64,000 nt of DNA from Acidobacteriota bacterium (GTDB lineage Bacteria > Acidobacteriota > Thermoanaerobaculia > Multivoradales > Multivoraceae): NCBI GenBank assembly GCA_028877275.1, contig JAPPFP010000006.1, positions 576,775 through 640,774 of the forward strand, given 5' to 3'. The notes under the pieces were generated by a model that had not been told where the DNA came from, made no database searches, and saw nothing but the letters and a program-made list of their open reading frames with translations. The translations under genes were made by a program, and so were the position numbers. Of the stretch, positions 1-61,031 are shown piece by piece (position 1 is the stretch's first letter; each line of letters begins with the position of its first letter).

Positions 1-164
1 GGCGAGTAGCGGGTGAAGGCGTGGTCGCGGCCATGATGGGGCCACTCGGCACTTCCCTCGCCTGACTGGGCGAAGGCGCCGGTTGCCGTCGAGGCGGCTG
101 CCAGCAGTGCCAGGACGAGGCGGGGCCGGCAGAGGGTGGGGCGTCGGCGTACGTTCCTGTTCAC
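1..164 (-). CDS. PQQ-dependent dehydrogenase paralog, N-terminal ~50 codons only (gene continues beyond window start)
   Basis: Minus-strand translation of 1-140 reads ..LALLAAASTATGAFAQSGEGSAEWPHHGRDHAFTRYSP, almost identical to the N-terminus of the 2387..4381 quinoprotein. Nucleotides 1-140 visibly match 4241-4381. A GTG at 162-164 overlaps the sulfatase stop (GTGA). Confidence 0.5.
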   Translation of the reverse strand, partial: MNRNVRRRPTLCRPRLVLALLAAASTATGAFAQSGEGSAEWPHHGRDHAFTRYS

Positions 165-2350
165 TGGGCTCGCTGCAAGGCCGCTTCGGTGAGGATTCGC
201 AACTGGTCGACACCGTCGGCGCCGGCGGCCAGGTCGATGACGATCGTCGCCCCGTCGGCGAGGATCTCCCAGCCGTCGGCGTCGGACTCGCCGGCGAGAG
301 TGCCGCGATCTGGCGAACGGCCGAACTCGGGGTTGGCGAAGGCGAGGAAGTCGCTGGCGGCGAGGCTTTCCGAACTCGCGGCAACGCCGAGGATCGGATC
401 GTCGAACGTGATCTCGACGTCATTGAGGTCGCCTGTCGCGGTGGGGGCGAAGTGAAGGAGATAGCTGTGGACGACGGTGCCCGCGGGTACGGTCGCGCCG
501 GGCGGCGAATTGCCGCCGTCGTAGGCGGCGGGGGCGCCGCCGCTTTCGACCACGAGGTCCTCGCCGAGGGTGGCGAACTGCCGCTCGACGACCAGTTCCG
601 GACGATCTGCTGAGGTCCGGCGAGCGGCCGAGAAGTCGCCCGGGACGGTCTCGTCGCCGACGTCGCCGAGAAGGTCGACGCCGTCGGCGGCGGCGATGCG
701 GGTGTCGTAGTCGGCGCCCTCGCGGCTGGCCGCCGTGTCCACCTCGTACCAGGTCGTGATCTCGTCCAGAAGCGAGGTGAAGATCTCCTGGATCTCCTGC
801 GGCTTCGAGTCGACGTCGGCGTTGGTGGCGACCGGGGTCTGTTCGCGTGGGTCTTCGAGCAGGTCGAACAGCTCCCATTCCCGGCCGCTGGTCACCGAGA
901 TCAGCTTGTAGCGGTCGTCGAGGATGGAGCGCCCGCCGCCCAGCCTCATCAGGCCCCTGCCGCCGCGGCCCCGGCCGGCGCTGTCGCAGTCCTCGGGCTC
1001 GCCGGCGGCGCGTTCCGGAACGGGATCGTCGCAGTCGTCGAACCGGAGGCGGCCGAGGCGGAGCGCCGAGCGATCACCAAAGAGGACCTCGGACATCGAC
1101 TCGCCGTCGAGCGGCCGCGAGTCGGGCAGGTCGACGTCCCAGATGTCCAGGAGGGTCGGCAGGTAGTCGCTGGTGATCATCGGCGTGGAGGTTTCGCCGG
1201 GAGGGATCCGTCCCGGCCACTCGACGATGCCCGGTACGCGGACCCCGCCCTCCCAGATGGAGCCCTTGAATCCTCGCAGGCCGGCCTTTGCTTCGTCCCG
1301 GTCGTCGAGTCTCACGGACCCCGAAAGCCCGTTGTCGGAGGTGAAGGCCACCAGCGTGTCGTCTTCGATGCCGAGCGTTCGCAGGTGGGCGCGCAGACGG
1401 CCGATCTCCTTGTCCATCGCCGTGATGCCGGAGTAGTAGGCCTTCTCGTAGTCGTTCATTTCCGCCTGCTCTTCGGAGGAGTAGAACTCGTCGAGAGTGG
1501 CCTGGTCGAGGCGATGGGGGCTGTGCGGCGGATGGAACCAGACGACGGCGAAGAAGGGGCGGTCGGCCGCAACGGCATCGTCGATGAACCGCGTCGTTTC
1601 CCGGACCAGGATGGCGGAGGCGTCGCCGGCGAGCGTGGGGGAGTCGATGTCGATGTGCTGCTCGTGGCCGGTCCAGTAGTGCGCCCCGATGTGGTTGCCT
1701 TCGCTCGGGAGGGGGCCCGCGGGGTCGATGCGCATCGGCTCGAAGGTCGGCAGCGCCTGCGGGGACGCCCAGGCGCGCTCGTAGCCGTGGTGCCAAGGCG
1801 CGGAGTAGAAGTCGCCTCCGCTCCGGCCGAAGCAACGGCCGCCGCAACGCGCGAGGTCGTCCGCGTCGGGTTCGGGTGTCCGGTTCAGGTTGCCGAGGTG
1901 CCACTTGCCGAAGTGTCCGGTCATGTAGCCCTGGGTCTGGGCCAGTTCGGCGATCGTCAGTTCCAGGTTGCGGAGACCGTCGTTGTAGGCCATGTCGACG
2001 TGGTTGCGCCGCGGCGAGCGGCCGGTGACGAAGGACGACCGGGTCGGACTGCAGTTCGAACCGTGCGAGTACATGCGATGGAACTGGAGGCCGGCCGCCG
2101 CCATCGCGCGCAGTTCGGGCGTCTTGACCTCGCTGTGGCCCGGAAAGACGTCGCCGGGGGCGAGTTGCTGGGGATACTCGACGTCGCCCCAGCCCTGGTC
2201 GTCGCTCATCATCAGGATGATGTTCGGCCGTGGCGGACCCGACGACGGTCCGGCGTCCTCGCCCGAGGGAGCGGCGCAACCGCAGGCTACGAGGCCGAGG
2301 ACGAGCGCGCCCGGCCGGTGGGAGAAGGAGCGTGCGACGTTCCTGATCAT
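161..2350 (-). CDS. Formylglycine-dependent sulfatase (arylsulfatase family) with C-terminal extension; lipoprotein signal
   Basis: The N-terminal lipobox is LVACGC. Sulfatase signature CSPTRSSFVTGR and GKWHLG are present. A GAGGAGG ribosome-binding site lies upstream of the ATG. Confidence 0.9.
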   Translation of the reverse strand: MIRNVARSFSHRPGALVLGLVACGCAAPSGEDAGPSSGPPRPNIILMMSDDQGWGDVEYPQQLAPGDVFPGHSEVKTPELRAMAAAGLQFHRMYSHGSNCSPTRSSFVTGRSPRRNHVDMAYNDGLRNLELTIAELAQTQGYMTGHFGKWHLGNLNRTPEPDADDLARCGGRCFGRSGGDFYSAPWHHGYERAWASPQALPTFEPMRIDPAGPLPSEGNHIGAHYWTGHEQHIDIDSPTLAGDASAILVRETTRFIDDAVAADRPFFAVVWFHPPHSPHRLDQATLDEFYSSEEQAEMNDYEKAYYSGITAMDKEIGRLRAHLRTLGIEDDTLVAFTSDNGLSGSVRLDDRDEAKAGLRGFKGSIWEGGVRVPGIVEWPGRIPPGETSTPMITSDYLPTLLDIWDVDLPDSRPLDGESMSEVLFGDRSALRLGRLRFDDCDDPVPERAAGEPEDCDSAGRGRGGRGLMRLGGGRSILDDRYKLISVTSGREWELFDLLEDPREQTPVATNADVDSKPQEIQEIFTSLLDEITTWYEVDTAASREGADYDTRIAAADGVDLLGDVGDETVPGDFSAARRTSADRPELVVERQFATLGEDLVVESGGAPAAYDGGNSPPGATVPAGTVVHSYLLHFAPTATGDLNDVEITFDDPILGVAASSESLAASDFLAFANPEFGRSPDRGTLAGESDADGWEILADGATIVIDLAAGADGVDQLRILTEAALQRAQ

Positions 2351-2386
2351 CTCGTGGACCTCCTCATCCCGCCGATAGCGCGATCG

Positions 2387-4381
2387 TCAGTCCTCTCGGG
2401 GCAGAGCGAAGGCCACAAGTTCCGCCGTCGCCGCCTGGACGTTCGCGTTCCTGCCCACCGCCCTGCCGCCCGGCCTGCCGCCTGCAGGGACCACGATGTA
2501 CTGGCGGCCCTCATGCCGGTAGGTGACCGGCACTCCGTGCAGCGCGGTGTCGGTCTCGATCTGCGCCAGCACCTTGCCGGTCGCCTTGTCGTAGGCGGTG
2601 AGGTAGCTGGCTGTCGCCGTCGGGGCGTCCCAGCTCTCCCTCTTCGGCGAATGGGTGATCAGCAGCGTCCTGGTGACGAGTAGTCCGCCTTCGCGGGTGC
2701 CGCTCGAAGGGCGGCTGCCGAGGGGGCCGAGGTCGAGATGGCGGATCGCGGGGTGATCCGTCGGGCCTTCTCCCAGCGGCACCTGCCAGGCGTGCTCGCC
2801 GGTCTTCAGGTCGATCGCCGTGATGCGCCGGTAGGGCGGTTTCGTCAGGGGCAGCCCCTGGGGGATCTTGAGTCCTCCCGCTCCTCCCGTCGACTTCTTC
2901 ACGTAGCGGAACTCGCTGCGGGCGGGGTCCGGCTTCGCCAGTCCCCAGGCGCCGAGCTGGGTCGTCGACTGGACGTAGACGATCCCGGTCAGGGGATCGA
3001 ACGAGGCGCCGGGATGGTTGGCCCCGCCGCCTGGGCCGGGCGAGACGATCGTGCCGAGCTTGCCTCCTTCGCCGGCGACGATCGAGGGCGTGAAGATCGG
3101 GCCGGTGACAAACGATTCGATGACCTCAAGCGCCTCCCGGCGCAGCCCCGGCGTGAAGTCGACCAGATCGTCGACGGTCAGGCCCTGAAGATCGAATGCC
3201 GGCGGTTTGGTCGGAAACGGCTGGGTCGGCGAGAGCTTCTCGCCGGGCACCGTGGACGGGGGAACCGGCCGCTCGTCGATCGGCCACAGCGGCTCGCCGG
3301 TGACCCGATCGAAGACGTAGAGGAAGGCGGTCTTCGACGCCATGGCCACGGCCTTGCGCAGCCGGCCTTCGACGACCACGTCGACCAGGTTCGGGGCCGA
3401 GGCGTTGTCGTAGTCCCAGATGCCGTGATGCACGGTCTGGAAGTGCCAGACGCGCTCGCCGGTCTCGGCGTCCGCGCAGACCAGGCTCTCGCCGTAGACG
3501 TTGTCACCGTGGCGGTCGCCGCCGTAATAGTCGCTCGACGGTGTCGACGTGGCGAAGTAGACGTAGCCGAGCTCCTCGTCGGCGGCGAGCGGCGCCCACA
3601 CGTTCGTGTTGCCCATCCACTTCCAGGAGTTGTTCTCCCACGTCTCGGTGAAGTCGTCGCCTTCCTGCGGAATCGTGTGGAAGCGCCACTTCTGCTCGCC
3701 GGTGCGCACGTCGTAGGCGCGCACGTGGCCCGGCGGGATGCCCGTCCTCTTCGACGGCACGTCGAAGATCCGCGAGCCGACGATGTACGTGTCGCCGACG
3801 ACGATCCCGGGCGAGCCGGCGCTGATGTCGCGCAGCCGGATCCCCGGGCGGCCGAGGTCGTCGAGCGCCATGTGGACGAAGCCCTCCTCGCCGAAGTCGG
3901 GATCGGGTTGCCCGGTCGCAAGGTCGATCGAGATCAGCAGCTTGCCGGAGGTGGCGAACAGGATGCGCTCCTCGTCGCCGTCGGTCCAGTACTCGATCCC
4001 CCGGGGACTCGAGTACGCGGCCCTGGGCGCCTCGTACGCTTCGGAGTCGTACACCCAGATCTCCTCGCCGGTGGCGGCATCGAGTGCCGCGAGCTGCCAC
4101 AGCGTGGTCATCATGTAGACCCGCCCGCCTACCATGAGCGCCGAGCCGGAGAAGGCGCCGGGTACCTCCCTCACGCGGTGGTCGGCGGACTTCCAGCGCC
4201 AGGCCACGTCGAGCTGGGAGAAGTTCCCGCCGTCGATGTCCGCTAGCGGCGAGTAGCGGCTGAAGGCGTGGTCGCGGCCGTGATGCGGCCACTCCACGTC
4301 CGGGGCGCCGGACTCGGCGAAGGCGGTGGGGCCTGCCAGGGCGGCCGCCACTGCCGCCAGTACCGTGTACGCAGCCCTCAT
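2387..4381 (-). CDS. PQQ-dependent dehydrogenase (8-bladed beta-propeller quinoprotein, methanol/ethanol-dehydrogenase superfamily), secreted
   Basis: The protein has repeated W-containing propeller motifs and GIWDYDNASAPNL (DYD) in the catalytic region. The track ORF was trimmed to the internal ATG at 4381, which gives signal peptide MRAAYTVLAAVAAALAGPTAFA. That ATG overlaps the stop of the upstream gene (ATGA). Confidence 0.85.
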   Translation of the reverse strand: MRAAYTVLAAVAAALAGPTAFAESGAPDVEWPHHGRDHAFSRYSPLADIDGGNFSQLDVAWRWKSADHRVREVPGAFSGSALMVGGRVYMMTTLWQLAALDAATGEEIWVYDSEAYEAPRAAYSSPRGIEYWTDGDEERILFATSGKLLISIDLATGQPDPDFGEEGFVHMALDDLGRPGIRLRDISAGSPGIVVGDTYIVGSRIFDVPSKRTGIPPGHVRAYDVRTGEQKWRFHTIPQEGDDFTETWENNSWKWMGNTNVWAPLAADEELGYVYFATSTPSSDYYGGDRHGDNVYGESLVCADAETGERVWHFQTVHHGIWDYDNASAPNLVDVVVEGRLRKAVAMASKTAFLYVFDRVTGEPLWPIDERPVPPSTVPGEKLSPTQPFPTKPPAFDLQGLTVDDLVDFTPGLRREALEVIESFVTGPIFTPSIVAGEGGKLGTIVSPGPGGGANHPGASFDPLTGIVYVQSTTQLGAWGLAKPDPARSEFRYVKKSTGGAGGLKIPQGLPLTKPPYRRITAIDLKTGEHAWQVPLGEGPTDHPAIRHLDLGPLGSRPSSGTREGGLLVTRTLLITHSPKRESWDAPTATASYLTAYDKATGKVLAQIETDTALHGVPVTYRHEGRQYIVVPAGGRPGGRAVGRNANVQAATAELVAFALPRED

Positions 4382-4812
4382 CGGTTCGGCGGCTCCGATG
4401 GGTCGGCCGAATCTCTCGGCGCGCCGGTGCCTGAAGAGCCGAGGAACAGCCTCTCCCCGTTGGTGTAGGTCACGGTGCGTCCCGCGCACTTGTTCGAGCG
4501 GTCCTTGGCCTGGAAGCCATCGACGACGATCTCGGTGCCCGGCATCAGCGAGTCCTTGGTGAAGCCCCGACGGAACAGGCTAGGGGGACTGCCGCTCTCG
4601 ACCATCCAGATCTCGGTCGAACCGTCTTCCTTCGCGACCTCCATGTGAATCCACGCGTGGGGATTGATCCACTCCATCCGGGTCACCTTCCCGGTGAGCT
4701 TGACCGGGCGGTCGGCATCGAACTCGGCCGCGAAGGCATGGTGCGCCATCGCCGGCGCGGCGCCCACGGCGAGAGTGAGAGCGGTTGCGGCCATGAGGAC
4801 CTTGGTGAGCAT
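4378..4812 (-). CDS. Small secreted protein (~144 aa); mature N-terminus predicted as His-His after AMA cleavage site
   Basis: AAGGAGG lies 8 nt upstream of the ATG at 4812. The signal peptide is MLTKVLMAATALTLAVGAAPAMA followed by HHAFAAEF. The stop overlaps the start of the downstream quinoprotein. GC3 looks coding. An alternative ATG at 4836 overlaps the upstream stop. Confidence 0.55.
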   Translation of the reverse strand: MLTKVLMAATALTLAVGAAPAMAHHAFAAEFDADRPVKLTGKVTRMEWINPHAWIHMEVAKEDGSTEIWMVESGSPPSLFRRGFTKDSLMPGTEIVVDGFQAKDRSNKCAGRTVTYTNGERLFLGSSGTGAPRDSADPSEPPNR

Positions 4813-4832
4813 GGCGTTGACCTCCTTCCGGG

Positions 4833-5651
4833 TCATTCGGGATCTTCACCCTTCCAGACGCCCTTGCTCAGGTGGCGGTACATCAGCTCTTCCGCGAACA
4901 CCACGCACTTGAAGTCGAGAAGCTGCATGTTCGGCTCGATCCGTCGATAGAGCGGAAAGCTCACTTTCCACGGGCGGGTGTAGGTCTTCGGGTCGGTGAT
5001 CGTCGCCTCGTAGAGGAGATGGTCCGGCCCCGTCGCCGTGTAGCGCTCGAGGACGTGGAACTCCTCGCTGTGGTGATTGCCGGAGCTGTCGAGCCAGGTG
5101 TCGGGAACCTGGGCGGAGACGTCGATCACCAGGGTTTCTCCCTCCCAGTGGCCCCGGGAGTGGCCCATCCAGTTGTCGCCGGGGCTCTCGAAGTCTGGCC
5201 GGTTCATGTAGACGATCCGGCTGGCGCTGGCGAACTCGTAGGCGAAGATCACGTTCTCGGGGGTCTGGATGATCTGGAACGGGAAGGGCATGTAGTTGGC
5301 GCGGGGGATGCCGGGCATGAAGCACTTGATCGCAGGGTCCAGCTCCCACCACCGCGCGAGGTTCTCCTGCTGCTTCGCCCTCGCCCCCGGGGTGTAGGGG
5401 ATCTCGCCGCCTTCGACGATCCCAAGGCCCCCCGGCACGGCGCCGAGCGCACCCAGTTCGACGATGGGACCCATGCGGGCGGCGTGGGCCTCGATGTCCC
5501 AGTGCGCCGTGGTCAGGGCCTGCCAGATGCCGTTCAGGTCCGGCTCGCCGTCGCTGGTGCGCGGGGCCCGGTAGTCCTGCGCCTGGACCGGTGCCGCCGC
5601 CATCACTGCCACGACGGCGGCGACCGTGGCGGAAAGACCTGCACTCCGCAT
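4833..5651 (-). CDS. Secreted protein of unassigned family, paralog A (PDLNG/WEGETLV motifs)
   Basis: The signal peptide is MRSAGLSATVAAVVAVMAAAPVQA. The protein is a paralog of 5675..6556 and 27896..28999 (shared TSDGEPDLNGIW, GHWEGETLVIDV, RPW). The track ORF was trimmed from 6053 to the ATG at 5651. Confidence 0.6.
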   Translation of the reverse strand: MRSAGLSATVAAVVAVMAAAPVQAQDYRAPRTSDGEPDLNGIWQALTTAHWDIEAHAARMGPIVELGALGAVPGGLGIVEGGEIPYTPGARAKQQENLARWWELDPAIKCFMPGIPRANYMPFPFQIIQTPENVIFAYEFASASRIVYMNRPDFESPGDNWMGHSRGHWEGETLVIDVSAQVPDTWLDSSGNHHSEEFHVLERYTATGPDHLLYEATITDPKTYTRPWKVSFPLYRRIEPNMQLLDFKCVVFAEELMYRHLSKGVWKGEDPE

Positions 5652-5674
5652 TCGGTTTCGCAGGTTCCTACCTC

Positions 5675-6556
5675 TCATTCGGGGTCCGCCGCCGCGGCCG
5701 CGGCGGCCTCCTGCTCGCTGACGCGAGCGCCGCGCAGGATGTTCGCCATGTTGTAGTTGCCCTCGTGGCAGGCGAACTCGAAGAGCGGCTCGTTGCGCTT
5801 GCCCATCGGCATCCTCACCGTCCACGGCCTGACCCAGATCGGCGGATCGTCGATCGTCACCTCGTAGAGCATCACCTTGGGGCCCACCCGGGTGAAGCGC
5901 TCGGTCACCACCAGCTCGTCCGAGTTGAGGGAGTGGAACCAGGTCTGCGGGGTCCCTCGCTGGTGGCTGCCGGCGTACCCCTTGGGCAGGTAGTTCGCGG
6001 TCTCGACGACCAGCGAGTCGCCTTCCCAGCGGCCTCGCGAGTCGCCGAGCCATAGTCCGATCCGGCGATCCGGGTGGGGCGAAGCATCAAGGGGGATGAC
6101 GCGCGCCTCGTGGTACCACTCCATGACGATGACGACATGGTCCCGGTTCTGGACGAACTTGTAGTACTGGTTGAAGTTCGCCCGCACGGGCACGCCCAGG
6201 GTCACGCAGCGCTCGCCCAGGGAGCGGTCCTTCCAGGTGTCGGCCGGATGCTCCTCCAGGTACTGCTGGAGGGCGTCCCAGTCCTTCTGCGCCTGCTCGG
6301 TCAGAGCTGGAATCCCGCCTTCCGGCGGGTCGATGACCAGGTCGGAGAGTCTGGCGCCGCCGCGGGTGCCGCCGATCTCCACCCACACGCCACGCAGGTC
6401 GGGGTGGCCGTCCACGGTGCGGGGCAGGGTCCAGCCCGCTGGCGCCTCGGGCACCTCCACGGGCCCGCGAGCCCTTCGCTGAGCCGCAGCGAGGCCAGGC
6501 AGCAGCAGTACCAACACGATTCCGGCCGCCAGGCGTCGCGATGACGATCTGCGCAT
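5675..6556 (-). CDS. Secreted protein of unassigned family, paralog B (PDLRG...ERC...WEGDSLVVE...ERF...FACHEGNY)
   Basis: The signal peptide contains RR. Conserved blocks are shared with the paralogs at 4833 and 27896. The C-terminus carries FEFACHEGNYNMANILRGAR. Confidence 0.65.
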   Translation of the reverse strand: MRRSSSRRLAAGIVLVLLLPGLAAAQRRARGPVEVPEAPAGWTLPRTVDGHPDLRGVWVEIGGTRGGARLSDLVIDPPEGGIPALTEQAQKDWDALQQYLEEHPADTWKDRSLGERCVTLGVPVRANFNQYYKFVQNRDHVVIVMEWYHEARVIPLDASPHPDRRIGLWLGDSRGRWEGDSLVVETANYLPKGYAGSHQRGTPQTWFHSLNSDELVVTERFTRVGPKVMLYEVTIDDPPIWVRPWTVRMPMGKRNEPLFEFACHEGNYNMANILRGARVSEQEAAAAAAADPE

Positions 6557-6646
6557 CGAGCAGCCTCCTGCGGGTTCTCGGCCGGCGCGCCCCGTCCGGG
6601 GCGCACTCGAAGAACGGCAGTCCGGTTTTCGCGGCGCTGCGCCCTG

Positions 6647-6669
6647 GGAGTGCGCCCTTGGTGCAGCCG
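6647..6669. repeat. 23-bp exact repeat GGAGTGCGCCCTTGGTGCAGCCG, copy 1 (upstream of paralog B gene on minus strand)
   Basis: The sequence is identical to 9106..9128. It is flanked by a 10-bp inverted repeat (GGGCGCACTC...GAGTGCGCCC) and a GCGCCCCGTCCGGGGCGC hairpin. Confidence 0.6.
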
Positions 6670-6745
6670 GCCAGCTATTGGATGGCAGTGGGTCCGTTTC
6701 TGAGACTAGTGGACCTGCCGGCTTCGGTCAAACGCCGTTTGGTCT

Positions 6746-9103
6746 TCAGACCTCCGGCACCAACGGCCATACGAGCGGAAGAACCGTCAGAACCACCATC
6801 ATCACCAGGATCAACAACGGGAAGCCGGCCTTCATGAAGTCAACGAAACGGTATCGTCCGAACCCCATCACCAACAGATTGACCGGATGACCCACCGGAC
6901 TCATGAAGGCGCAGGAACTCGCCACCGCCACCGTCATCATGAGAGCCTGGGCCGACAGCCCTTCGGTAGTGGCCGTGCTAAGGGCTATGGGCGACATGAG
7001 TACCGCGACCGCCGCCGTCGGCATGACTTGGGCCGACAGGGCTGTGATCAGAAAGAGCCCCGCCGTCACTGCCAGCGGCCCGAAGTCCGCGAGGGAACCT
7101 AGCACCGTCCTGGCCACCAGCGCAGCGGTTCCGGACTCCTGCATCGCCAGTCCCAGGCTGAGCATCCCCGCGATTAGGATGACCGCCTTCAGCTCGATGC
7201 ACCGGTAGGCCTCTTCGATCTTCAGGCAGCCCGTCAGCACCATCAGGACGGCTCCGATTGGCGCCGCGACAAAGACGGGCAGAAGGCCCGAGATCACCGA
7301 AGTCAGAACCCCCGCCATGATCAGGGCGCTGACGGGAGCCTTCTTGCTTCGTACAGCTTCTACCGTTTCTTCCGTCATGACGAGGAAGTCCGGGTGTTCC
7401 GCCAGGAGCGCGAGCTTGTTCCTTTCGCCATAGAGCAAAAGGGCATCACCCGGGAGCAGTTCCGTTTTCCGGAGCCCACTCCGGTAGATCTCTCCGTTCC
7501 GCCATATCGCGAGGATCGAGACACCGTAGTTCTGCCGGAACTTGAGTTCCTCGACCGTCCTTCCCGCGAATGTCGTGCGGGGAGACAGCGATGCCTCCGC
7601 CAGGCCGACGGCGTCGGATTCCAGTCGACTCAGATCCAGGGGGTGATCGTCGCCCACCTCCAGGTCCTGGAGCGCCTCCAGGATCCTGAGATCCTCGAGG
7701 TGTCCACGGAGCAGGAGAACGTCCCCTCCTTCCAGTTCCGTATCCGGATCGGGAACGAGAAACTCGTCATCGGTCCGCAGAATCCCGACGACCGTCAGGC
7801 CGAATGCATCGGCCAACTGGGTCTGCGCGAGCAACTGACCGGACAGTAGCGAGTCTTCCGAGATTCTGACGCTCTGAATCCTGCGCTCCATGTGGTAGCG
7901 AGAAACCAGATCTTCCGCCGGCACTGAACGAACCGCTCCCAGGCTCCCGTCCTCCGCCAGTGCGGCAAGTCGCCCGCTTTCCATCGCGATCAGCAGACGA
8001 TCCTCTGAAGCAAGAGTCATCTCCCGCAATCCCGTGCGATGCACGGTATCGCCGCGTAGAACTGCAAGCACGTGCAGGCGCCGGGTTCGGCGCAGGTTCG
8101 CTTTGCGAACCGTCTTTCCGATCAGCGACGAATCTCCCGCCAACTCCAGTTCCGCCACCCCGATCGAGGCGTTTGCGATGCGCTCCAGAGTCCGGTCTCT
8201 CGACTCGATCTCCAGGTGCTTCCATGCGCGGAGAGCTTCGAACCGCTCAAGGGTTCCTTCCACGACCATCTCGTCTGCCTCGCTGAGAACGAAGTCGTTC
8301 CCGGGAGCGAGGATCAGTTGCCCGCTTCGTCGTATCGCTACGACGTTCAGACCCAGGGCATGGCCCAACCGGCCCTGGCGAAGTGTCTTGCCGGCCAGGG
8401 CGGAATGTCTGGGTGTTCTCAGGACTCCGATGAGGCCACCCAGGTCGTAGAGTCCCCCCAGATCCACCGGGGCGGACTCCTTTGTCGGAGCGTGGTCCGG
8501 CAGCAGTCGCCGCCCCAGGAACGTCATGTAGACGACCCCTACGGCAAGCGCCGTCAAACCGACCGGTGTGAACGAGAACATCCGGAACGGCTCGAACTCG
8601 GCATCCCTCAGCGCCCCGTTCACCAGGATGTTCGGCGCCGTTCCGATCAAGGTCGTCATTCCGCCGAGCAGGGATCCGAAGGCCAGGGGCATGAGCAGTT
8701 TCGAAGGCGCGGCCCCTATGCGGCGGGCCATGTCCAGTACCACCGGAAGCATGAGCGCGGTGATTCCAATGTCGTTCATGATCCCCGACAGGAGGCCCAC
8801 CGTGGGCATCATCACCGCGATGAGACGGCCGACTCCGTCCCCCGACGCGGCCAGAACCCGTTGACCGATGAAGTGGGCCACGCCGGTCCGCGTCAGCCCG
8901 CCGCTCAAGACCAGAACGGAAGCGATTGTGATGACCGCTTCGTTGGCGAAACCCATGATCGCCTGCTCGCCCTCGAGGATGTTCGTCACCACCAGTGCGA
9001 GCATCACCATCAGGGCGACGAGATCCACCCGGACCCATTCGGTCACGAACAGGACCACCGCGACTGCGAGAATTCCCCCGACTACGAGAACCTCGAAGCT
9101 CAT
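6746..9103 (-). CDS. SLC13/DASS (divalent anion:Na+ symporter, ArsB/NhaD superfamily) permease with central tandem TrkA_C (RCK_C) domains
   Basis: Hydrophobic N- and C-terminal halves flank two soluble RCK_C-like segments. This is the typical SLC13-TrkA_C architecture. Confidence 0.85.
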   Translation of the reverse strand: MSFEVLVVGGILAVAVVLFVTEWVRVDLVALMVMLALVVTNILEGEQAIMGFANEAVITIASVLVLSGGLTRTGVAHFIGQRVLAASGDGVGRLIAVMMPTVGLLSGIMNDIGITALMLPVVLDMARRIGAAPSKLLMPLAFGSLLGGMTTLIGTAPNILVNGALRDAEFEPFRMFSFTPVGLTALAVGVVYMTFLGRRLLPDHAPTKESAPVDLGGLYDLGGLIGVLRTPRHSALAGKTLRQGRLGHALGLNVVAIRRSGQLILAPGNDFVLSEADEMVVEGTLERFEALRAWKHLEIESRDRTLERIANASIGVAELELAGDSSLIGKTVRKANLRRTRRLHVLAVLRGDTVHRTGLREMTLASEDRLLIAMESGRLAALAEDGSLGAVRSVPAEDLVSRYHMERRIQSVRISEDSLLSGQLLAQTQLADAFGLTVVGILRTDDEFLVPDPDTELEGGDVLLLRGHLEDLRILEALQDLEVGDDHPLDLSRLESDAVGLAEASLSPRTTFAGRTVEELKFRQNYGVSILAIWRNGEIYRSGLRKTELLPGDALLLYGERNKLALLAEHPDFLVMTEETVEAVRSKKAPVSALIMAGVLTSVISGLLPVFVAAPIGAVLMVLTGCLKIEEAYRCIELKAVILIAGMLSLGLAMQESGTAALVARTVLGSLADFGPLAVTAGLFLITALSAQVMPTAAVAVLMSPIALSTATTEGLSAQALMMTVAVASSCAFMSPVGHPVNLLVMGFGRYRFVDFMKAGFPLLILVMMVVLTVLPLVWPLVPEV

Positions 9104-11764: not shown

Positions 11765-14700
11765 TCAGGGGCCCTGAGGGCTCGTCGCTTCCTGCGCGGT
11801 CATCAGGTACGCGACGAGGTTCGTCACCTCATCGTCGGAGTAGGGATCGAGCAGTCCCTCCGGCATCATCGAGAGCGGGAAGTAGTCGAACGACTGGATG
11901 TCCGACTGGGCGATGACGACTTCGTCCTGGCCGACGACGCGCAGGGTCATGGAGCGGGGGCTCTTGGTGGCGACGGTGCCGGAGTAGGTGCGGCCGTCCC
12001 GTGTGGTCACCATCAGGGTCTGGTAGACGTCCTGGATGTCGCCGCTCGGGTCGAGGATGTTCGTCAGCAGGTAGTCGAGTTCCGTGCGGTTGGAACCGGT
12101 GAGGTCGGGACCGATGAGGCCGCCTTCGCCGAACATCTGGTGGCACACGGCGCAAAGCTCGGTGAACATCTGCTCGCCGTGAGCGGTGTCGGCCGCCGCG
12201 ATCGCGTCGTCGCTCAGGATCGTCGTGTACTTCGCGATGGCCGCGGCTTTCTCGCTGGAGACCCGCGTGATCGGTCCCCAGACCTCGAGAAAGCCGCTGC
12301 CGACGACCCGGTGGAGCTGGCGGGCGACGTAGGCCGGCACGTCGCGCCGCGGGACGCTTCCCTCCTTGATCGCGCCCATCAGCACGCGCCCGTAGATGGG
12401 GCGGGAGGCGAGCGTCTGGACGGCGGCGAGCTTCTCGTCCGCGTTGAAGGAGTCGTAGCGCCCGAGCAGCAGGAAGCCCGACTCCCAGCGGCCGTCGAAC
12501 GCGGCGTAGGCGCGGAGCGCGGCGATCCGCACTTCGGGTTCGTCCAGCAGAGCCGGGAGCCGCTCGAAGAGGGCCTGGTGCTGCTGGTCGGCGAGGCCTT
12601 GGATGGCCCGCCGCCGATCTTCGGGCGGAGCGCTTTCGTCGTCGAGCGTCGCGAGGAACTGGCGCGCGACCTCGACGCCGCCAAACTGCTGCTCCACCTC
12701 GAGGGCGATGTCGGCGACGTTGCGGTCGCGCTTCAGCCGGGCGTAGACCCGTTCCCAGTTGTCCGGGGGCTCGGCGTAGACCTGACCCTCGAGTCCGGCC
12801 AGCATGCCCCGGAGCAGAGCCGGCCGGGCCTCGGACCGGTCGTCGAGCGAGGTGACGAGGAACCCGAGCTCGTCCGCGTCGACCGCGCGGCGCGCGATGT
12901 TCTCCGTGAGCATCGGGATCTGGGAGGTCCTGGCCAGCCGCAACGCGCGCTTCGGGTCCTCCGGAACCAGGGGCTCGATGCCGAACCAGATCATCTTCGG
13001 GATGTTGTGGTCGTCCGCGTCGTCGCCCTTCATCACGAGGTGCTCGGCGATCGACCAGCGCACGTCGTGGTCGACGCGCTGGAGGGCCGCCGCGAGGTAG
13101 AGGCGGACGATCGGCGAAGCGTCCCGGTCCGCCAACTCGACGAACTTCTCCGTCGCGGTAGCCGGCGCGTCGTGGTCTTCGGTCAGGAGCTGGATCGCCC
13201 AGGCCCGGACGTGCTGGTCCTCGTCGTCCAGCGCTGTCATCAGTTCGTCGGACGTGAAGCCGTCGGTGACGTGGAGCGCCCACATCGCCCGCAGGCGCAG
13301 GTCGCCGTCAGGATTCGATGCGAACATCTCGCGCAGCGCGTCGTGAACCGGGGCGTCGACTTCGCCCCTGGCCGCGCGGCCCTGCAGGACGACCCGTGCC
13401 CGCCGAGCGTGCCAGGAGCTCTTCGAGAGCTGCAGCTCCACGAGTTGCTCGTTCGACATGGCCTTGACGTCGTCGTAGCGGCCCTCCCAGTCGTCTGCCA
13501 GGGACTGCTCGGGCGTGATGCGGAAGATCCGCCCGGTCTCCTTGTGCTGGACGTCGTTGCCGCAGATGTCCGCGTCGTGCCAGTCGAGGACGTAGACGTC
13601 GCCGCCCGGCCCGATCTCCATGCTGAAGCCGACCCACTGCTTGTTGTTGGCGAGCAGGAAGTCCTCTCCGTGGTGGGCGACGAAGCCGGAGCCCTTCGGC
13701 TCGAGTTCGTCCGAGAGCACCGCGTGCTCGTGGATGTTCGCCATGAAGAGCCGGCCGTAGTGCTCCTCGGGGAAGGCGTCCGACAGGTAGACGCGCGCGC
13801 CCCCGTGCGCGGAGCGGTGCCGGTGGTTGACGATCGTGCGGATGTCGCCGTAGACGTACGGATTGAAGTGCGAGCCGCCCTGGCGGTGGTAGATGCCGCC
13901 GGGGACCACGTGGAACAGGTGGGGGATCACGCAGGCGGTGATGAAGATCTGGCCCTTCGCGTCGTAGTCGATGCCCCAGGGGTTGCTGAAGCCGTGGGCC
14001 ACGACCTCGAAGCGGTCCTTCGTCGGGTGGTAGCGCCAGACGCCGCCGTTGATGTCGACGCCGTCGTACTCGAACAGGTCATCGGGGAAGGGGTCGTTGT
14101 GGCCGTAGATCGTCTCCTCGGGTCCCGGCTTGCGGATCCTGGAGGGCGTCGCGAACCCTTCGAGGCCGTAGAGCCAGCCGTCCGGCCCCCAGTGGAAGCT
14201 GTTGATCGTCTCGTGACGGTCGCGGATGCCCCAGCCGGTCAGCAGGATTTCGGCGTCGTCCATGTCGGCGACGTCGTCGCCGTCGCGGTCGGGGAGAAAG
14301 AGGAGATGCGGCGGCGCGCCGACGAAGACGCCGTCGAAGCCGACCGCCAGCGCCGCCGGGAACGGGATACCCTCCGCGAAGACCTTCTTGCTGTCGGCTG
14401 CGCCGTCGCGGTCCGTGTCCTCCAGGATCAGGATGCGACTGTCGCCCGAACCGGAGAAACCGCGGCCGCGGGTCTCGTAGTCGCGGTTCTCGGCGATCCA
14501 TATGCGGCCGCGATCGTCCCAGGCGAAGGCCATGGGCTGGGTGATCATGGGCTCCGATGCCCAGGCGTTCACCTTGAACCCGTCGCGCACGGTCATCGCA
14601 TCGACCGCCTCTTCCGGTGTCAGGAACTTCTCCTGCTTCGCTTCCCGCTGGGCGATGCCCCATAGCGATGACGTCGAGTAGGAGCCCTCGGCAGCCCCGG

Positions 14701-15712
14701 TGTACTCCTCCCAGTCCTCCGTCAGTTCGAGATCGTTCAGTTCGCCCGTGTAGACGATGAGCCGGTGGCGGATAACCTCGGTCGCGCCCTCGGGGATGTG
14801 CCAGTCGCCCATCCGTGACCGCGCCGGGCCAACGCCGAGCTGGCCGTCGACGCGCCAGGTCTGGGGGTAGCCGGCGTTCATCGGGTGGTCGAAGATGGCG
14901 ACGTGCAGGAAGTCGTCGCGGCCCTCGACCTGCATCCCGACATCGACCCACATCGCGCGCTGACCCTCGGCCTGCCGATTGCGCTGGCGGGCCGCGTTGA
15001 CGGCCTCGCCGGGGATGTCCCTGGTCCAGGGCATGCGCAGGAACATGCCGCCGTAGGACATCTCGTTGATCGAGACGTCGGTGTGCGCTTCGCCTGACCA
15101 CTCGAGATCGAGGATGAAGCGGTCTTCCTCGGCCCGCATGGACCAGTTCTGGGTCTCCGTCATGAAGGCGTTGCCTTCGGCGTCCAGCATGCCGTAGACC
15201 GTCTGCCACTGGACCTCCGTCCCAGCCTCGGTCACCACGGAAGCCGAATCGCGTCGCCAGTAGTCGCCGCCGGGGTTGTGGAAGTAGTCCCGGCCGATGG
15301 ACTTGGCGATCTCCTCCGGCTTGTCGCGGCGGTAGAACCACTGCCGGAGCGTGTCCGCGTCCATCGGCTCGCCGTTGACCCGGGTGAAGCCCCAGTAGAG
15401 CCCGGTCTGGTGCGGGTGGTGGCCCGGGCTGTACTGCGTCGCCAGTCCCTTGCCGTCGGGAGCGACGATCGGGTGCAGGAACGGCCGGTGCTCCGCGCCG
15501 GCGTTCTGGGTGACGATCGGTTCCTCTTCGCCCTCCCGGTAGATCGAGATCGCGCCGGTTTCCTCGTCCTGAACGGCTCGTAGCGGAACGGCTTGCGCCG
15601 CTTCTTCAGCGGCCGCCTCACCGGCGCCCGTGCCTTGAGTGCAGCCGGCCACGAGCGCCGCAAGTGCCAGTAGAACAATCGGTACCCATGCCGGCGCGGC
15701 CGGAACTCTCAT
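11765..15712 (-). CDS. Giant secreted multidomain protein: PmoA-like (DUF6807) N-terminal domain + glucose/sorbosone-dehydrogenase-like beta-propeller + HEAT repeats + C-terminal cytochrome c (PVC-type heme-binding CxxCH protein)
   Basis: The N-terminal domain has SPGHHPHQTGLYWGF. The propeller segment reads DDRGRIWIAENRDYETRG. The cytochrome c motif is CAVCHQMFGEGGLIGPDLTG. The start was trimmed to the ATG at 15712 (GGAGG 7 nt upstream, lipobox LVAGC). Confidence 0.8.
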   Translation of the reverse strand: MRVPAAPAWVPIVLLALAALVAGCTQGTGAGEAAAEEAAQAVPLRAVQDEETGAISIYREGEEEPIVTQNAGAEHRPFLHPIVAPDGKGLATQYSPGHHPHQTGLYWGFTRVNGEPMDADTLRQWFYRRDKPEEIAKSIGRDYFHNPGGDYWRRDSASVVTEAGTEVQWQTVYGMLDAEGNAFMTETQNWSMRAEEDRFILDLEWSGEAHTDVSINEMSYGGMFLRMPWTRDIPGEAVNAARQRNRQAEGQRAMWVDVGMQVEGRDDFLHVAIFDHPMNAGYPQTWRVDGQLGVGPARSRMGDWHIPEGATEVIRHRLIVYTGELNDLELTEDWEEYTGAAEGSYSTSSLWGIAQREAKQEKFLTPEEAVDAMTVRDGFKVNAWASEPMITQPMAFAWDDRGRIWIAENRDYETRGRGFSGSGDSRILILEDTDRDGAADSKKVFAEGIPFPAALAVGFDGVFVGAPPHLLFLPDRDGDDVADMDDAEILLTGWGIRDRHETINSFHWGPDGWLYGLEGFATPSRIRKPGPEETIYGHNDPFPDDLFEYDGVDINGGVWRYHPTKDRFEVVAHGFSNPWGIDYDAKGQIFITACVIPHLFHVVPGGIYHRQGGSHFNPYVYGDIRTIVNHRHRSAHGGARVYLSDAFPEEHYGRLFMANIHEHAVLSDELEPKGSGFVAHHGEDFLLANNKQWVGFSMEIGPGGDVYVLDWHDADICGNDVQHKETGRIFRITPEQSLADDWEGRYDDVKAMSNEQLVELQLSKSSWHARRARVVLQGRAARGEVDAPVHDALREMFASNPDGDLRLRAMWALHVTDGFTSDELMTALDDEDQHVRAWAIQLLTEDHDAPATATEKFVELADRDASPIVRLYLAAALQRVDHDVRWSIAEHLVMKGDDADDHNIPKMIWFGIEPLVPEDPKRALRLARTSQIPMLTENIARRAVDADELGFLVTSLDDRSEARPALLRGMLAGLEGQVYAEPPDNWERVYARLKRDRNVADIALEVEQQFGGVEVARQFLATLDDESAPPEDRRRAIQGLADQQHQALFERLPALLDEPEVRIAALRAYAAFDGRWESGFLLLGRYDSFNADEKLAAVQTLASRPIYGRVLMGAIKEGSVPRRDVPAYVARQLHRVVGSGFLEVWGPITRVSSEKAAAIAKYTTILSDDAIAAADTAHGEQMFTELCAVCHQMFGEGGLIGPDLTGSNRTELDYLLTNILDPSGDIQDVYQTLMVTTRDGRTYSGTVATKSPRSMTLRVVGQDEVVIAQSDIQSFDYFPLSMMPEGLLDPYSDDEVTNLVAYLMTAQEATSPQGP

Positions 15713-15838
15713 CCGCCTTCCTCCCTCGATCCCTGAAGCCTGTCGTGGAGACAAGGGCGCATCCTATCGTCCCGCCGGGGGACTGGTCGGAGGCGTCGCT
15801 CGACGTTGCCCTGACCCGGTAGGCCCGCTGGCTCGACG

Positions 15839-25510: not shown

Positions 25511-26524
25511 ATGACCGAGAACCGCCAGATCATCATCGACTCGTTGCCGACGGACCGGCTCGAGCCCGGCAACTATGCGCTCCGGACCGTCGATGTGCCC
25601 GCGCCGGGCGACGGGGAAGTCCTGTGCCGCACGCTGGCAATCACGATCGGGGCAGGCCAGCGGGCCGGTCTCCAGGGCAGCGCGAGTTACGCCGGGGCGC
25701 CGCGTGCCGGCATCGTGATGAGCGGTACGGCGGTGGCGCGCATCGAGGCGTCGAACGACGACGCGGTTCCGGTGGGCTCGCTCGTCGTTTGCCCGGCCGG
25801 TTGGCAGGACTACTCGGTCCACGCGGCGGCGAAGGTGCGCGTCGTCGATGAAGGCAGCGGAGGCGGTGATCCGGCCCACCATCTGGGCGTCTACGGCACG
25901 AACGGCCTGACGGCGTACTTCGGGCTCTTCGACGTCGGGGAGCCGAAGGAAGGGCAAACCGTGCTCGTTTCGGCGGCCGCCGGTTCGGTCGGCCACCTGG
26001 TGGGCCAGATGGCGAAGGTCACCCGTTGCCGCGTCGTCGGCGTCGCCGGCGGCGAGGAGAAGTGCCGGCTGCTCACGGAGGAACTCGGCTTCGACGCCGC
26101 CGTCGACTACAAGAGCCCGAGCTTCCGGAGCGACTTCAAGGAGGCGACGCCCGATCGCATCGACATCTACTTCGACAACACGGGCGGCGAAGTCCTGGGC
26201 AGCGCGCTGCGGCGGATGAAGGTCGGTGGCCGCATCGTCTGCTGCGGCGTCGTCTCCCAGTACGACACGTCGAAGCCCGCGCCGGGGCCGTTCGGCGTCC
26301 CGGGTCTTCTGATCAACTTCCGCGTTCGCATGGAGGGCTTCCTCGTCTTCGACTACGCGAAGCGCTATCCGGAGGCCTGGACCCGGATGCGCGAGTGGGT
26401 CGAGGCCGGCAAACTGGTCCCGAAGCAGGACGTCTTCGAGGGCCTGGAGAAGGCGCCGGAGGCGTTCGTCGACCTGCTGGCCGGCGGCAACGTGGGGACG
26501 CGGATCGTGCGCGTCGCGTCGTGA
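25511..26524 (+). CDS. NADP-dependent oxidoreductase, MDR superfamily (YncB/CurA/prostaglandin reductase-like)
   Basis: The cofactor motif AAAGSVGHLVGQMAK is present, and the N-terminal domain is GroES-like. Confidence 0.85.
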   Translation: MTENRQIIIDSLPTDRLEPGNYALRTVDVPAPGDGEVLCRTLAITIGAGQRAGLQGSASYAGAPRAGIVMSGTAVARIEASNDDAVPVGSLVVCPAGWQDYSVHAAAKVRVVDEGSGGGDPAHHLGVYGTNGLTAYFGLFDVGEPKEGQTVLVSAAAGSVGHLVGQMAKVTRCRVVGVAGGEEKCRLLTEELGFDAAVDYKSPSFRSDFKEATPDRIDIYFDNTGGEVLGSALRRMKVGGRIVCCGVVSQYDTSKPAPGPFGVPGLLINFRVRMEGFLVFDYAKRYPEAWTRMREWVEAGKLVPKQDVFEGLEKAPEAFVDLLAGGNVGTRIVRVAS

Positions 26525-26541
26525 TGGGAGGGAAGGGAACC

Positions 26542-27828
26542 ATGGACCGAAGAGCACTCTCGATCGTTGCGCTCGTCGCTACTTTGTCGTTCGGTTGCGC
26601 CGCGGGTCCTCCAGGTGAGGACGCCGTGGACACCGATTCGTCGCCCGTGGCGCTCCTCGAGCAGGCTCGCGTCATCCACGAACGCGTGCTGGTCCTTGAC
26701 GCCCACGCGGACACCGAGCTTCCGGATGCGCCGTCTCCCTACGTCGGTGACGACGGCCTGTCCCAGGTCGACCCGTCCAAGCTCCACGCGGGCGGTGTCG
26801 ACGCCGTCGTCATGTCCGTCGCGGTCGGTTCGGGGCCGCGCACCGCGGAAGGCTACGCAGCCGCCCGGTCAAGGGCCGACGAGGAGGTCGCGGCGGTGCT
26901 CGGGCTGGCTGCGGACCCGGCGAACAATGCCGTAGTCGCCCGGTCGGCCGACGAGATCGTCGCTGCCCATGAGCAGGGCAAGGCAGCGCTCCTTCTCGGC
27001 TTCCAGAACGCCATGATTCTCGGCACCGATGTCGCGGCGCTGGACGACTTCTACGACGCCGGCGCGCGCGTGTTCGCTCTCACGCACCTGGGGAACAACG
27101 ACTTCGCCGATTCGTCGCGCCCGGTCTTCAACGCGGCGACGGGCACGCACGAAGCGGCCGAGCACGGCGGGCTGTCCGACCTGGGGGTTGCGGCCATCGA
27201 ACGGATCAACGCTCTCGGCGGAGTCGTCGATGTGTCCCAGTTGTCGCGGGAAGCCGCCCTCCAGGTGCTCGAAGTCTCGACTACGCCGGTCATCGCCAGC
27301 CACTCCAACGCGAGGCAACTCACCGACGTCAGCCGCAACCTGAGCGACGAGGAGATCGACGGCATCGGCGCGATCGGCGGTGTGGTCCACGTCTGTCCGT
27401 TCCGGGGCTATCTCTACGATTCGAGTGATGCCTCGCTCGACGAGGCGATCCGGGAGGCGCGGAGCGAGGCCGGCGTGCTCGAGGACTACCTCTATCCCTT
27501 CGAGCTGTACTGGGAGATCGACGATCCCGCCGCCAGGTCCACCTTCACACAGTCGATCAGCGACCTCCTCGGGCCGGGTAGCGTGGATGCAATGCTCGAC
27601 CACCTCGACTACGTCGTCGAACGGATCGGCGTGGACCACGTCGGCATCGGGTCCGACTTCAACCACGGCGGCGGAGTGGAAGGCTTCGCCGACGCCAGCG
27701 AGGCCCTGGGCGTGACCGTTGGCCTGCTCGAACGCGGCTACGACGAGGCCGACATCGAGAAGATCTGGGGCGGCAACTTCCTGCGGGTGATGCGGGCGGC
27801 GGAGGCCGCGAAGACCCCGGTGGAGTAG
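26542..27828 (+). CDS. Membrane dipeptidase (peptidase family M19), lipoprotein
   Basis: M19 motifs VLDAHADT and HSNARQL are present, with GIGSDFNHGGG near the C-terminus. The lipobox is LSFGC. The track ORF was trimmed from 26026. Confidence 0.85.
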   Translation: MDRRALSIVALVATLSFGCAAGPPGEDAVDTDSSPVALLEQARVIHERVLVLDAHADTELPDAPSPYVGDDGLSQVDPSKLHAGGVDAVVMSVAVGSGPRTAEGYAAARSRADEEVAAVLGLAADPANNAVVARSADEIVAAHEQGKAALLLGFQNAMILGTDVAALDDFYDAGARVFALTHLGNNDFADSSRPVFNAATGTHEAAEHGGLSDLGVAAIERINALGGVVDVSQLSREAALQVLEVSTTPVIASHSNARQLTDVSRNLSDEEIDGIGAIGGVVHVCPFRGYLYDSSDASLDEAIREARSEAGVLEDYLYPFELYWEIDDPAARSTFTQSISDLLGPGSVDAMLDHLDYVVERIGVDHVGIGSDFNHGGGVEGFADASEALGVTVGLLERGYDEADIEKIWGGNFLRVMRAAEAAKTPVE

Positions 27829-60940: not shown

Positions 60941-61031
60941 CTTGAAGTTCCTCGGAGGTTCGCCGGGCAACCTAAGCGTCTGAGGTCGGTGTGTCAACGA
61001 TGGCGAGCCTGGGGTACGGTCTCGGTGAGGT

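Follow-up and report, generated by a model that had tools for sequence, protein, structure and literature searches.

Calycins of the FABP type (FABP, CRBP, CRABP and the tardigrade SAHS proteins) are proteins of ~135 aa built as an antiparallel barrel of ~9–10 strands, with a helical element after the first strand. GxW is the lipocalin signature, and YceI-like periplasmic proteins with a lipocalin fold occur paired or fused with cytochrome b561. Among metal-binding proteins, N-terminal-His sites are known in CopC and YcnI, and CusF is a periplasmic Cu(I)/Ag(I) chaperone with an oligonucleotide/oligosaccharide-binding (OB) fold. The dehydrogenases that use pyrroloquinoline quinone (PQQ) have accessories of their own: cytochrome cL (MxaG/XoxG) and MxaJ/XoxJ are exported and encoded directly beside an eight-bladed PQQ dehydrogenase, presumably for electron output or maturation. 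The stretch of DNA analysed here, called the window throughout, comprises 64,000 nucleotides of an Acidobacteriota bacterium (GenBank assembly GCA_028877275.1, contig JAPPFP010000006.1, positions 576,775 to 640,774) and encodes three related exported proteins, A, B and C, whose locus invites comparison with these systems.

Two features set the locus apart. A, B and C are members of one very large family of Sec-exported proteins that is unnamed in the databases. Within this family two subfamilies can be distinguished, the A-type and the B-type, which together with a protein of the Pfam family DUF6152 form a co-inherited three-gene cassette; in the window, translational coupling links the cassette to the gene of a soluble PQQ dehydrogenase. 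The cassette system as a whole has no characterised counterpart, and our preference, a tentative one, is to see in A, B and DUF6152 a heteromeric periplasmic module tied to electron transfer.

Copies B (5675–6556, 293 aa) and A (4833–5678, 281 aa) stand in tandem on the reverse strand; copy C (27896–28999, 367 aa) is on the forward strand. The reading frames of B and A differ in how they are delimited: B is taken as it stands in the list of open reading frames (ORFs), and A begins with MRGRNL at an ATG at 5678, inside the mechanical ORF 4833–6053. The pairwise BLASTP E values (A/B 4e-30, B/C 3e-35, A/C 1e-13) are far beyond chance and make the paralogy certain, in agreement with the three-member family recognised in the initial annotation of this DNA, which had been made from the letters and their ORFs. 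The identity among the three is 27–33%, and the duplications are therefore ancient. That A, B and C are real native genes follows from the GC content at third codon positions (GC3), 0.88–0.89 in the called frames; the window has 68% GC overall and is uniformly 65–70%. A recent duplication or a horizontal island is ruled out by the low identity, the uniform GC content and the typical GC3. Ribosome-binding-like sequences are in place as well, with AGGAGG at 6569–6564 preceding B and GGAGG upstream of the ATG of C.

The sequences are held together by short blocks: PDLRG, ERC, WEGDSLVV, ERF, RPW and ACHEGNY in B; PDLNG, ERC, WEGDTLVV, ERF, APW and ACHEGNY in C; PDLNG, IKC, WEGETLVI, ERY, RPW and DFKCVVFAEE in A, which has no ACHEGNY. 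The shared blocks first described are thus present, with variants that the description had glossed over (PDLRG in B; APW in C; IKC, WEGETLVI and ERY in A). The signal peptides assigned to all three were read correctly: each N-terminus has, by eye, a basic n-region, a hydrophobic h-region and an AxA-like site. An N-terminal h-region is also present in 112 of 115 and 128 of 134 homologues in two sets. Only 2–3% of members have a Tat-like RR motif, and Tat export, which would imply a complex prefolded cofactor, is rejected on that count.

No described family accounts for these proteins, as the initial annotation had said. Pfam and NCBIfam scans of A, B and C give no match even at E ≤ 1, a Pfam scan of 62 aligned members gives scattered chance matches (the best being Dioxygenase_C in four members, 1.4e-4), and searches of the PDB with single sequences and with the 62-sequence profile give chance matches only (E > 0.1). 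Relatives are nonetheless plentiful. In a cluster database at 90% identity more than 4292 of 8000 scored candidates are significant, and every named match is "hypothetical". When the profile is run against 1.84 billion representatives of clusters at 50% identity, 27,813 of them match at E ≤ 1e-3 and 14,955 still do so at E ≤ 1e-10, which ranks the family among the larger ones for which databases have neither a model nor a name. With each GTDB species represented by a single genome, a scan yields at least 592 confirmed family loci. The best 80 of these are mostly from Vicinamibacterales, Bryobacterales and Terriglobia, joined by Gemmatimonadales, Gammaproteobacteria (Pseudohongiella, OM182, Pseudomonadales) and one Phenylobacterium. 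The family is found mainly in Acidobacteriota, Gemmatimonadota and Gammaproteobacteria, and members abound in lineages that are dominant in soils and in the sea (Vicinamibacterales, Bryobacterales, Gemmatimonadales and Pseudohongiella/OM182).

The division into two types emerges when a hidden Markov model (HMM) of the family is run on the six-frame ORFs of 90 related loci. B-type ORFs have ~320–360 aa and score above ~250 bits, nearly all with CHE[GAS]N and [ED][RK]C; they include B (376.8 bits) and C (343.4 bits). A-type ORFs, A among them, have ~270–280 aa and score 140–200 bits; they keep PDLxG and WEGxTL and never have CHEGN or ERC. The full B-type signature consists of a signal peptide, PRTxDGxPDLxGxW, [ED]RC, WEGD[TS]LVV, ER, PW, ACHEGN and a C-terminal helix with an invariant Arg; the complete set is carried by B and C, but not by A.

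Conservation across 324 B-types is extreme at particular positions: 100% for C117, C263, E219, E260 and E265; 99% for R116, R152, N267 and R278; 98% for Q136 and D237; 97% for E146, 96% for H264 and 87% for H149. The B-type thus carries a nearly invariant polar constellation made up of R116, Q136, E146, H149, R152, E219, D237, E260, C263-H264-E265-x-N267 and R278. The two Cys probably form a structural disulfide (C117–C263), which is more likely than a role for Cys as nucleophile or metal ligand because the pair is co-invariant in an exported protein and persists in the A-type, where the His is missing. The candidate functional site comprises H264, E265 and N267 together with the remaining charged residues that are invariant. 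The Cys-His-Glu site that the initial annotation had read in the ACHEGNY block is upheld as far as conservation goes, since the three residues are conserved at 100%, 96% and 100% in 320 B-types; its Cys, co-invariant with C117, points instead to the disulfide.

The A-type has a strong conservation of its own. An alignment of 19 A-type sequences from several phyla has the blocks PDLNGIWQ, IPYxPxA, DPxxKC, GxPRxxYxPxPFQIxQ and MGxSxGxWEGxTLV, followed by WxDxxGxxH, ER, YExxxxD, PW, PLYR and [EDQ][FY][KRP]CxEFxEE. Copy A aligns throughout with the 18 others, and its lineage has CVVF where most have CVEF. Both Cys, the counterparts of those in ERC and ACHEGNY, are retained in all 19; R116, H149, H264 and N267 are missing from the A-type, and the scaffold residues are kept. 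With conservation of this kind across several phyla, A is a distinct protein under purifying selection, from an ancient A-type subfamily, and not a locally decayed copy. It had first been described as a subfunctionalised duplicate that lost ACHEGNY, a view that needs to be revised in favour of a subfamily that is ancient, separately conserved and nearly always found beside a B-type.

In the window, B is the first gene of an apparent operon on the reverse strand. It is followed by A, by the gene for the DUF6152 protein (4378–4836; 152 aa; PF19649, E 3e-32, 111 bits against a cut-off of 27), by a PQQ dehydrogenase gene (2387–4381; PF01011 over its full length, profile 1–595, E 1.7e-171) and, as last gene, by a sulfatase gene (161–2350; PF00884, E 3e-44). 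B, A, DUF6152 and the PQQ dehydrogenase are joined by three ATGA stop/start overlaps (5678–5675, 4836–4833 and 4381–4378), and the sulfatase begins 36 nt after the PQQ dehydrogenase. The overlaps, the short gap and the absence of any terminator-like site within positions 1–7000 support co-transcription of the five genes, in keeping with the single transcript first proposed for A and B with the small protein, the quinoprotein and the sulfatase. The gene order recurs in L001 and L002, where the two closest relatives lie, along with extra PQQ dehydrogenase/sulfatase pairs.

C is a stand-alone B-type. It starts 68 nt downstream of, and on the same strand as, the gene of an M19 membrane dipeptidase (26524–27828; PF01244, E 1.3e-79), a lipoprotein with the lipobox LSFGC; the third, longer copy is thus indeed the neighbour of a dipeptidase, as had been reported. 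Among other loci, the closest relative of C is a cassette-type B (54% identity). A gene for a PepSY-associated transmembrane protein (29875–31032, reverse strand) lies ~0.9 kb downstream of C in convergent orientation.

The association of A-type, B-type and DUF6152 can be approached from either side. Starting from the family, in the 90 loci every A-type but one directly adjoins a B-type, in either order, and DUF6152 is the only strongly recurrent further neighbour (20 loci). The reverse test starts from DUF6152, with a scan of metagenome contigs for this domain and with two DUF6152 genes chosen only for their long contigs. Each of the two is preceded by genes for proteins of 266–280 aa (A-type) and 337–361 aa (B-type) that have no Pfam matches. 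Among DUF6152 loci with at least 400 bp of flank, a family gene lies no more than 2.6 kb away, on the same strand, in 66 of 76. Where at least 2.3 kb is available on both sides, the family gene is present in 18 of 18 and both types in 15 of 18, the gene orders (D for DUF6152) being ABD in seven, ABBD in three, ADB in two, AD in two and four others once each. Defined as A, B and DUF6152 on one strand within ~2.5 kb, the cassette recurs in L001, in L002 and in ~90 further loci. The conserved neighbour is thus DUF6152, and the synteny with PQQ dehydrogenase or sulfatase genes, which the initial annotation had suggested checking, fares less well: a PQQ dehydrogenase accompanies only about one fifth of cassettes, and the sulfatase is not generally kept. 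Sulfatase synteny was rejected as a property of the family, since sulfatase genes were matched only in the window and at the loci of the two relatives closest to it.

Cassette and stand-alone B-types fall mostly into separate groups in a nearest-neighbour analysis (70 + 72 concordant against 35 discordant). Up to five paralogues occur per locus, and many per genome. One protein, P0311, has an A-type domain and a second family domain in a single chain, which supports a physical pairing of the two barrels. In L002 (4949–6890) a gene pair for an extracytoplasmic function (ECF) sigma factor and a FecR-type anti-sigma factor stands directly upstream of a three-copy (B, B, A) cassette, a hint that the cassette is under surface-signalling control.

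The barrels themselves are predicted. The AlphaFold2 model of B, made with a 62-sequence alignment, has a mean predicted local distance difference test score (pLDDT) of 79 and a predicted template modelling score of 0.76; it consists of a first strand (56–60), a helical insertion, eight more strands and a long C-terminal helix (262–290). The structure prediction and Foldseek search proposed in the initial annotation lead to the FABP-type calycins, at the level of the fold only: the top 37 PDB matches to the model are all of this type (tardigrade SAHS, CRBP, CRABP, FABP; 5xn9, 8gdm and 1kqw are among the best), with E values of 1e-4 to 1e-2, a probability of ~1.0 and template modelling scores of 0.5–0.6 normalised to the target and ~0.3 normalised to the query. 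The family is accordingly predicted to have an FABP/lipocalin-like calycin barrel with a helical insertion and a C-terminal helix, a fold-level resemblance only. An antiparallel barrel with a helical element after the first strand is what the model would share with the FABP-type proteins, whereas sequence or profile similarity is lacking and A, B and C are exported and twice as large (~290–370 aa). Unlike the FABP-type proteins, moreover, the A/B/C family has the long C-terminal helix as well as a pair of Cys and a dense set of charged residues that are all invariant, and it occurs as A/B pairs with an OB-fold partner. Neither A, B and C nor the 62 aligned members have a Pfam match to Lipocalin/FABP, Lipocalin-like or YceI. 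The helical insertion varies in length: B and its closest relatives (P0001–P0006, 294–311 aa) are without ~45–70 residues of it, between strand 1 and DPPxG, and C and most homologues (~335–350 aa) retain it in full.

The surroundings of these genes are where electron transfer comes in. Taking the immediate neighbours of all family genes, the commonest Pfam family is the PQQ dehydrogenase (10 of 190), followed by SGL/lactonase beta-propellers. Among the neighbours of cassettes it is DUF6644 (17 of 119), a four-helix membrane protein, encoded in tandem pairs, whose similarity to DUF2214 and UPF0093/HemJ remains below threshold; HupE_UreJ_2 (3), outer-membrane protein (OMP) barrels (3), CopB (1) and TonB_C are found as well. 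Local HMMs find tandem DUF6644 in 15 loci and, likewise in 15 loci, a cytochrome c of class II (c'-like, four-helix) whose CxxCH is C-terminal; DUF6152 is encoded in 14 of the cytochrome loci. The genes can form a single one-strand cluster, as in L097 (180–4453; cytochrome c-DUF6644-DUF6644-A-B-DUF6152) and L113 (1022–4724; A-B-DUF6152-cytochrome c-DUF6644-DUF6644). For 47 cassettes the flank is at least 3 kb long, and in about 22 of these a class II cytochrome, DUF6644 or a PQQ dehydrogenase lies within 3 kb, a count that adds back the window and L001, which an overlap filter had dropped. Cytochrome c, DUF6644 and PQQ dehydrogenase are enriched around cassettes. In L111 (1156–4444) and L061 (6775–11038), as in L097 and L113, the cassette is accompanied by a class II cytochrome c lipoprotein and two tandem DUF6644.

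Haem motifs (CxxCH) are absent from A, B and C and occur only in neighbouring or fused proteins. One such fusion is P0290 (L173, 308–1597), which has a signal peptide, a class II cytochrome c (CVTCH) ending CVTCHADYRPGY and then a B-type domain; the chain enters the B-type mature N-terminus PRTPDGQPALQGIW directly, with no second signal peptide. This protein is the most direct hint that the B-type site might exchange electrons with haem proteins. Other fusions join a B-type domain to a CxxCH-containing squalene-cyclase-like toroid (P0308) and to a Lipocalin_5 domain (P0345). Two more distant stand-alone members, P0017 and P0040, belong to a conserved cluster of a CarboxypepD_reg outer-membrane protein, Abhydrolase_10, the family member, ApbA, CoA-transferase III and a GMC/PQQ oxidoreductase.

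The PQQ dehydrogenase of the window is soluble, eight-bladed and glucose-dehydrogenase-like, with the motif HHGIWDYD, a signal peptide and no transmembrane domain. Vicinal Cys-Cys, CxxCH and a haem domain are all absent, and no cytochrome gene adjoins its own. The HHDxWDxD context is shared by Ca/Mg-dependent membrane glucose dehydrogenases. Genes of eight-bladed PQQ dehydrogenases commonly have a neighbouring cytochrome gene, DxD has been used as a lanthanide signature, and a small periplasmic protein of ~120 aa with no conserved domain, described near TonB receptors, is different from A, B and DUF6152 (bioRxiv 10.64898/2026.07.10.737718). In the window, the usual position of the cytochrome beside the dehydrogenase is taken by the cassette. 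A lanthanide reading of WDYD in this enzyme is not adopted, because of the shared glucose-dehydrogenase context and because nearly all PQQ dehydrogenases in the related loci have the motif. In being exported and encoded directly beside an eight-bladed dehydrogenase, A, B and DUF6152 resemble MxaG/XoxG and MxaJ/XoxJ, but they lack a haem motif and are similar to neither XoxG nor XoxJ, and most cassettes are not beside a PQQ dehydrogenase. A likeness can also be drawn to YceI and cytochrome b561, in that a periplasmic barrel is genetically coupled to four-helix membrane proteins and electron transport, as A/B are to DUF6644 and cytochrome c. A and B are not homologous to YceI, and neither YceI (PF04264) nor cytochrome b561 has a Pfam match in any member or in the neighbour census.

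In a module tied to electron transfer, A and B would form a heteromeric pair of periplasmic barrels, in which B would carry the ligand, cofactor or metal site and A would be a partner without most of that site. The invariant Cys pair would form a disulfide that pins the C-terminal helix, and DUF6152, with its predicted mature N-terminus of His-His, would be a third subunit or a metal-handling helper. Redox proteins of the periplasm would be the partners with which such a module exchanges electrons or a redox-active small molecule: the cytochrome-less PQQ dehydrogenase in the window, and class II cytochrome c and the paired DUF6644 elsewhere. In C and the other stand-alone B-types, the B-type site would operate with different periplasmic enzymes. 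A more specific proposal, and a doubtful one, is that A-type, B-type and DUF6152 are a previously unrecognised periplasmic redox enzyme or electron-transfer module of calycin barrels and an OB fold, with a metal or small cofactor at the invariant His/Glu/Asn/Arg site of the B-type and with class II cytochromes c, DUF6644 (towards the quinone pool) and cytochrome-less soluble PQQ dehydrogenases as its partners. If true, it would supply a missing link for the electron output of many orphan PQQ dehydrogenases in soil Acidobacteriota and Gemmatimonadota, and a redox role would explain how soluble PQQ dehydrogenases without a cytochrome partner hand off their electrons.

Several points weigh against an electron-transfer role. 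About half of the 47 well-flanked cassettes have no cytochrome, DUF6644 or PQQ dehydrogenase within 3 kb, and the neighbours of stand-alone B-types are very diverse (hydrolases, lactonases, CoA-transferases, peptidases). A, B and C have neither CxxCH nor any recognisable redox-cofactor motif. The cytochrome fusion is a single cluster representative on one 2.6-kb contig. Within genomes the paralogues are greatly expanded, a pattern that electron carriers show less typically than substrate-binding proteins or enzymes do. The heteromer and the disulfide are themselves inferred, and the binding of cofactor, metal and partner is putative.

That expansion, within and between loci, would suit a family of small-molecule binding or carrier proteins like FABP, lipocalin or YceI, whose hydrophobic or anionic barrel ligand (such as a substrate, a quinone, an isoprenoid or PQQ) would be passed to periplasmic enzymes or membrane proteins and would differ between paralogues. 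This is somewhat unlikely. The best fold matches are the lipid- and retinoid-binding FABP and CRBP, and a GxW read in strand 1 is reminiscent of the lipocalin signature. Between that strand and DPP the helical insertion varies, the barrel itself being constant, and three to four invariant Arg with Trp and Tyr would suit a polyanionic ligand. CarboxypepD_reg/OMP barrels and PQQ dehydrogenases are among the neighbours, and there is the one natural fusion to a Lipocalin_5 domain. The sequence profiles, however, match neither the lipocalin nor the FABP nor the YceI families, and nearly invariant Glu, Arg, His and Asn at ~35–50% identity exceed what is usual for simple carriers. A carrier role would also leave the obligate A/B/DUF6152 trio and the cytochrome fusion unexplained.

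The DUF6152 protein brings metals into consideration. The domain has more than 8000 homologues, in which the predicted mature N-terminus HHAFxAEFD, read from the alignment as following directly upon AxA, and the motif WxNPHxWxH are invariant. The C-terminal tail FLGSSGTGAPxDGxD is invariant too, although its pLDDT is low, and looks like a docking peptide for a partner. The AlphaFold2 model (pLDDT 80) has an OB fold, with the LysRS anticodon-binding domain, PriB and SSB as best matches. By analogy with known N-terminal-His proteins, an exported OB fold with N-terminal His-His suggests metal binding. CusF is alike in being small and exported, with an OB fold and with hairpin His and Trp; DUF6152 differs in having no Met ligands, in its N-terminal His-His and in its invariant Gly/Ser-rich tail, and CusF is not among the top 50 Foldseek matches to the model.

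A system for periplasmic handling of copper or another cation could be built on these features: DUF6152 would bind the metal through His-His and NPHxWxH, A and B would be further binding or transfer proteins, and DUF6644 would be a CopD-like membrane component. We regard this as unlikely. The invariant H32-H33 after the inferred AxA site and the invariant H60, H64, W56 and W62 of DUF6152, placed on an OB fold according to AlphaFold2 and Foldseek, would fit it, as would Sec- rather than Tat-type export of a protein whose cofactor is loaded in the periplasm, and Ca or a lanthanide is required by PQQ dehydrogenases. A weak similarity joins DUF6644 to DUF2214 and UPF0093, both of the CopD-like clan, but the link to that clan comes from sub-threshold matches. 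Among the neighbours HupE_UreJ_2, CopB, TonB_C and TonB-receptor-like barrels would be in keeping with metal traffic; the first two, however, account for just 3 and 1 of the 119. In the B-type site no more than two His are conserved and Met- or Cys-rich motifs are missing, a metal chaperone would not usually have so many paralogues in a genome, and the absence of CusF from the 50 best fold matches also speaks against it. Were either the carrier or the metal reading true, the cassette would be a new periplasmic trafficking system.

That the B-types are stand-alone enzymes (hydrolase, lyase or isomerase) with a catalytic or metal-binding Cys-His-Glu site, as first proposed, and A an inactive pseudoenzyme, is improbable: the near-complete conservation of C263, H264 and E265, the active-site-like look of the other invariant charged residues and the presence of stand-alone members in catabolic clusters (Abhydrolase_10, M19 dipeptidase, lactonases, sulfatases) would agree with it, but C263 is co-invariant with C117 and both are kept in the A-type without the His, so that a periplasmic disulfide is likelier than a free thiol, no similarity to a known hydrolase or lyase family or fold is found in Pfam, NCBIfam, the PDB or with Foldseek, and the association with cytochrome and DUF6644 is left unexplained. 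The redox, carrier, metal and enzyme readings are not fully exclusive.

Whichever of them applies, the locus delimits a defined unit, with the A/B barrel pair and DUF6152 as core and a class II cytochrome c, two DUF6644 or a PQQ dehydrogenase as optional additions. The calycin fold class is known; the sequence family, the A/B split and the cassette with its two DUFs are undescribed in the databases and literature searched. No paper that mentions DUF6152 or DUF6644, or that joins two of DUF2214, CopD and HemJ, was found in that literature, and the cassette gives both Pfam families a first genomic context.

The remainder of the window is rich in genes for periplasmic sulfatases and quinoproteins; Rfam and tRNA scans of it found no RNA genes. 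Two further sulfatase genes (42820–47092, forward strand) overlap by 11 nt. On the reverse strand, a 1329-aa exported protein (11765–15754) combines DUF6807, DUF7133, HEAT repeats and a C-terminal cytochrome c domain, and its gene adjoins those of a GFO/IDH/MocA oxidoreductase and an MFS transporter. A second PQQ dehydrogenase (58817–61402, reverse strand) has a C-terminal cytochrome c domain (CxxCH) of its own.

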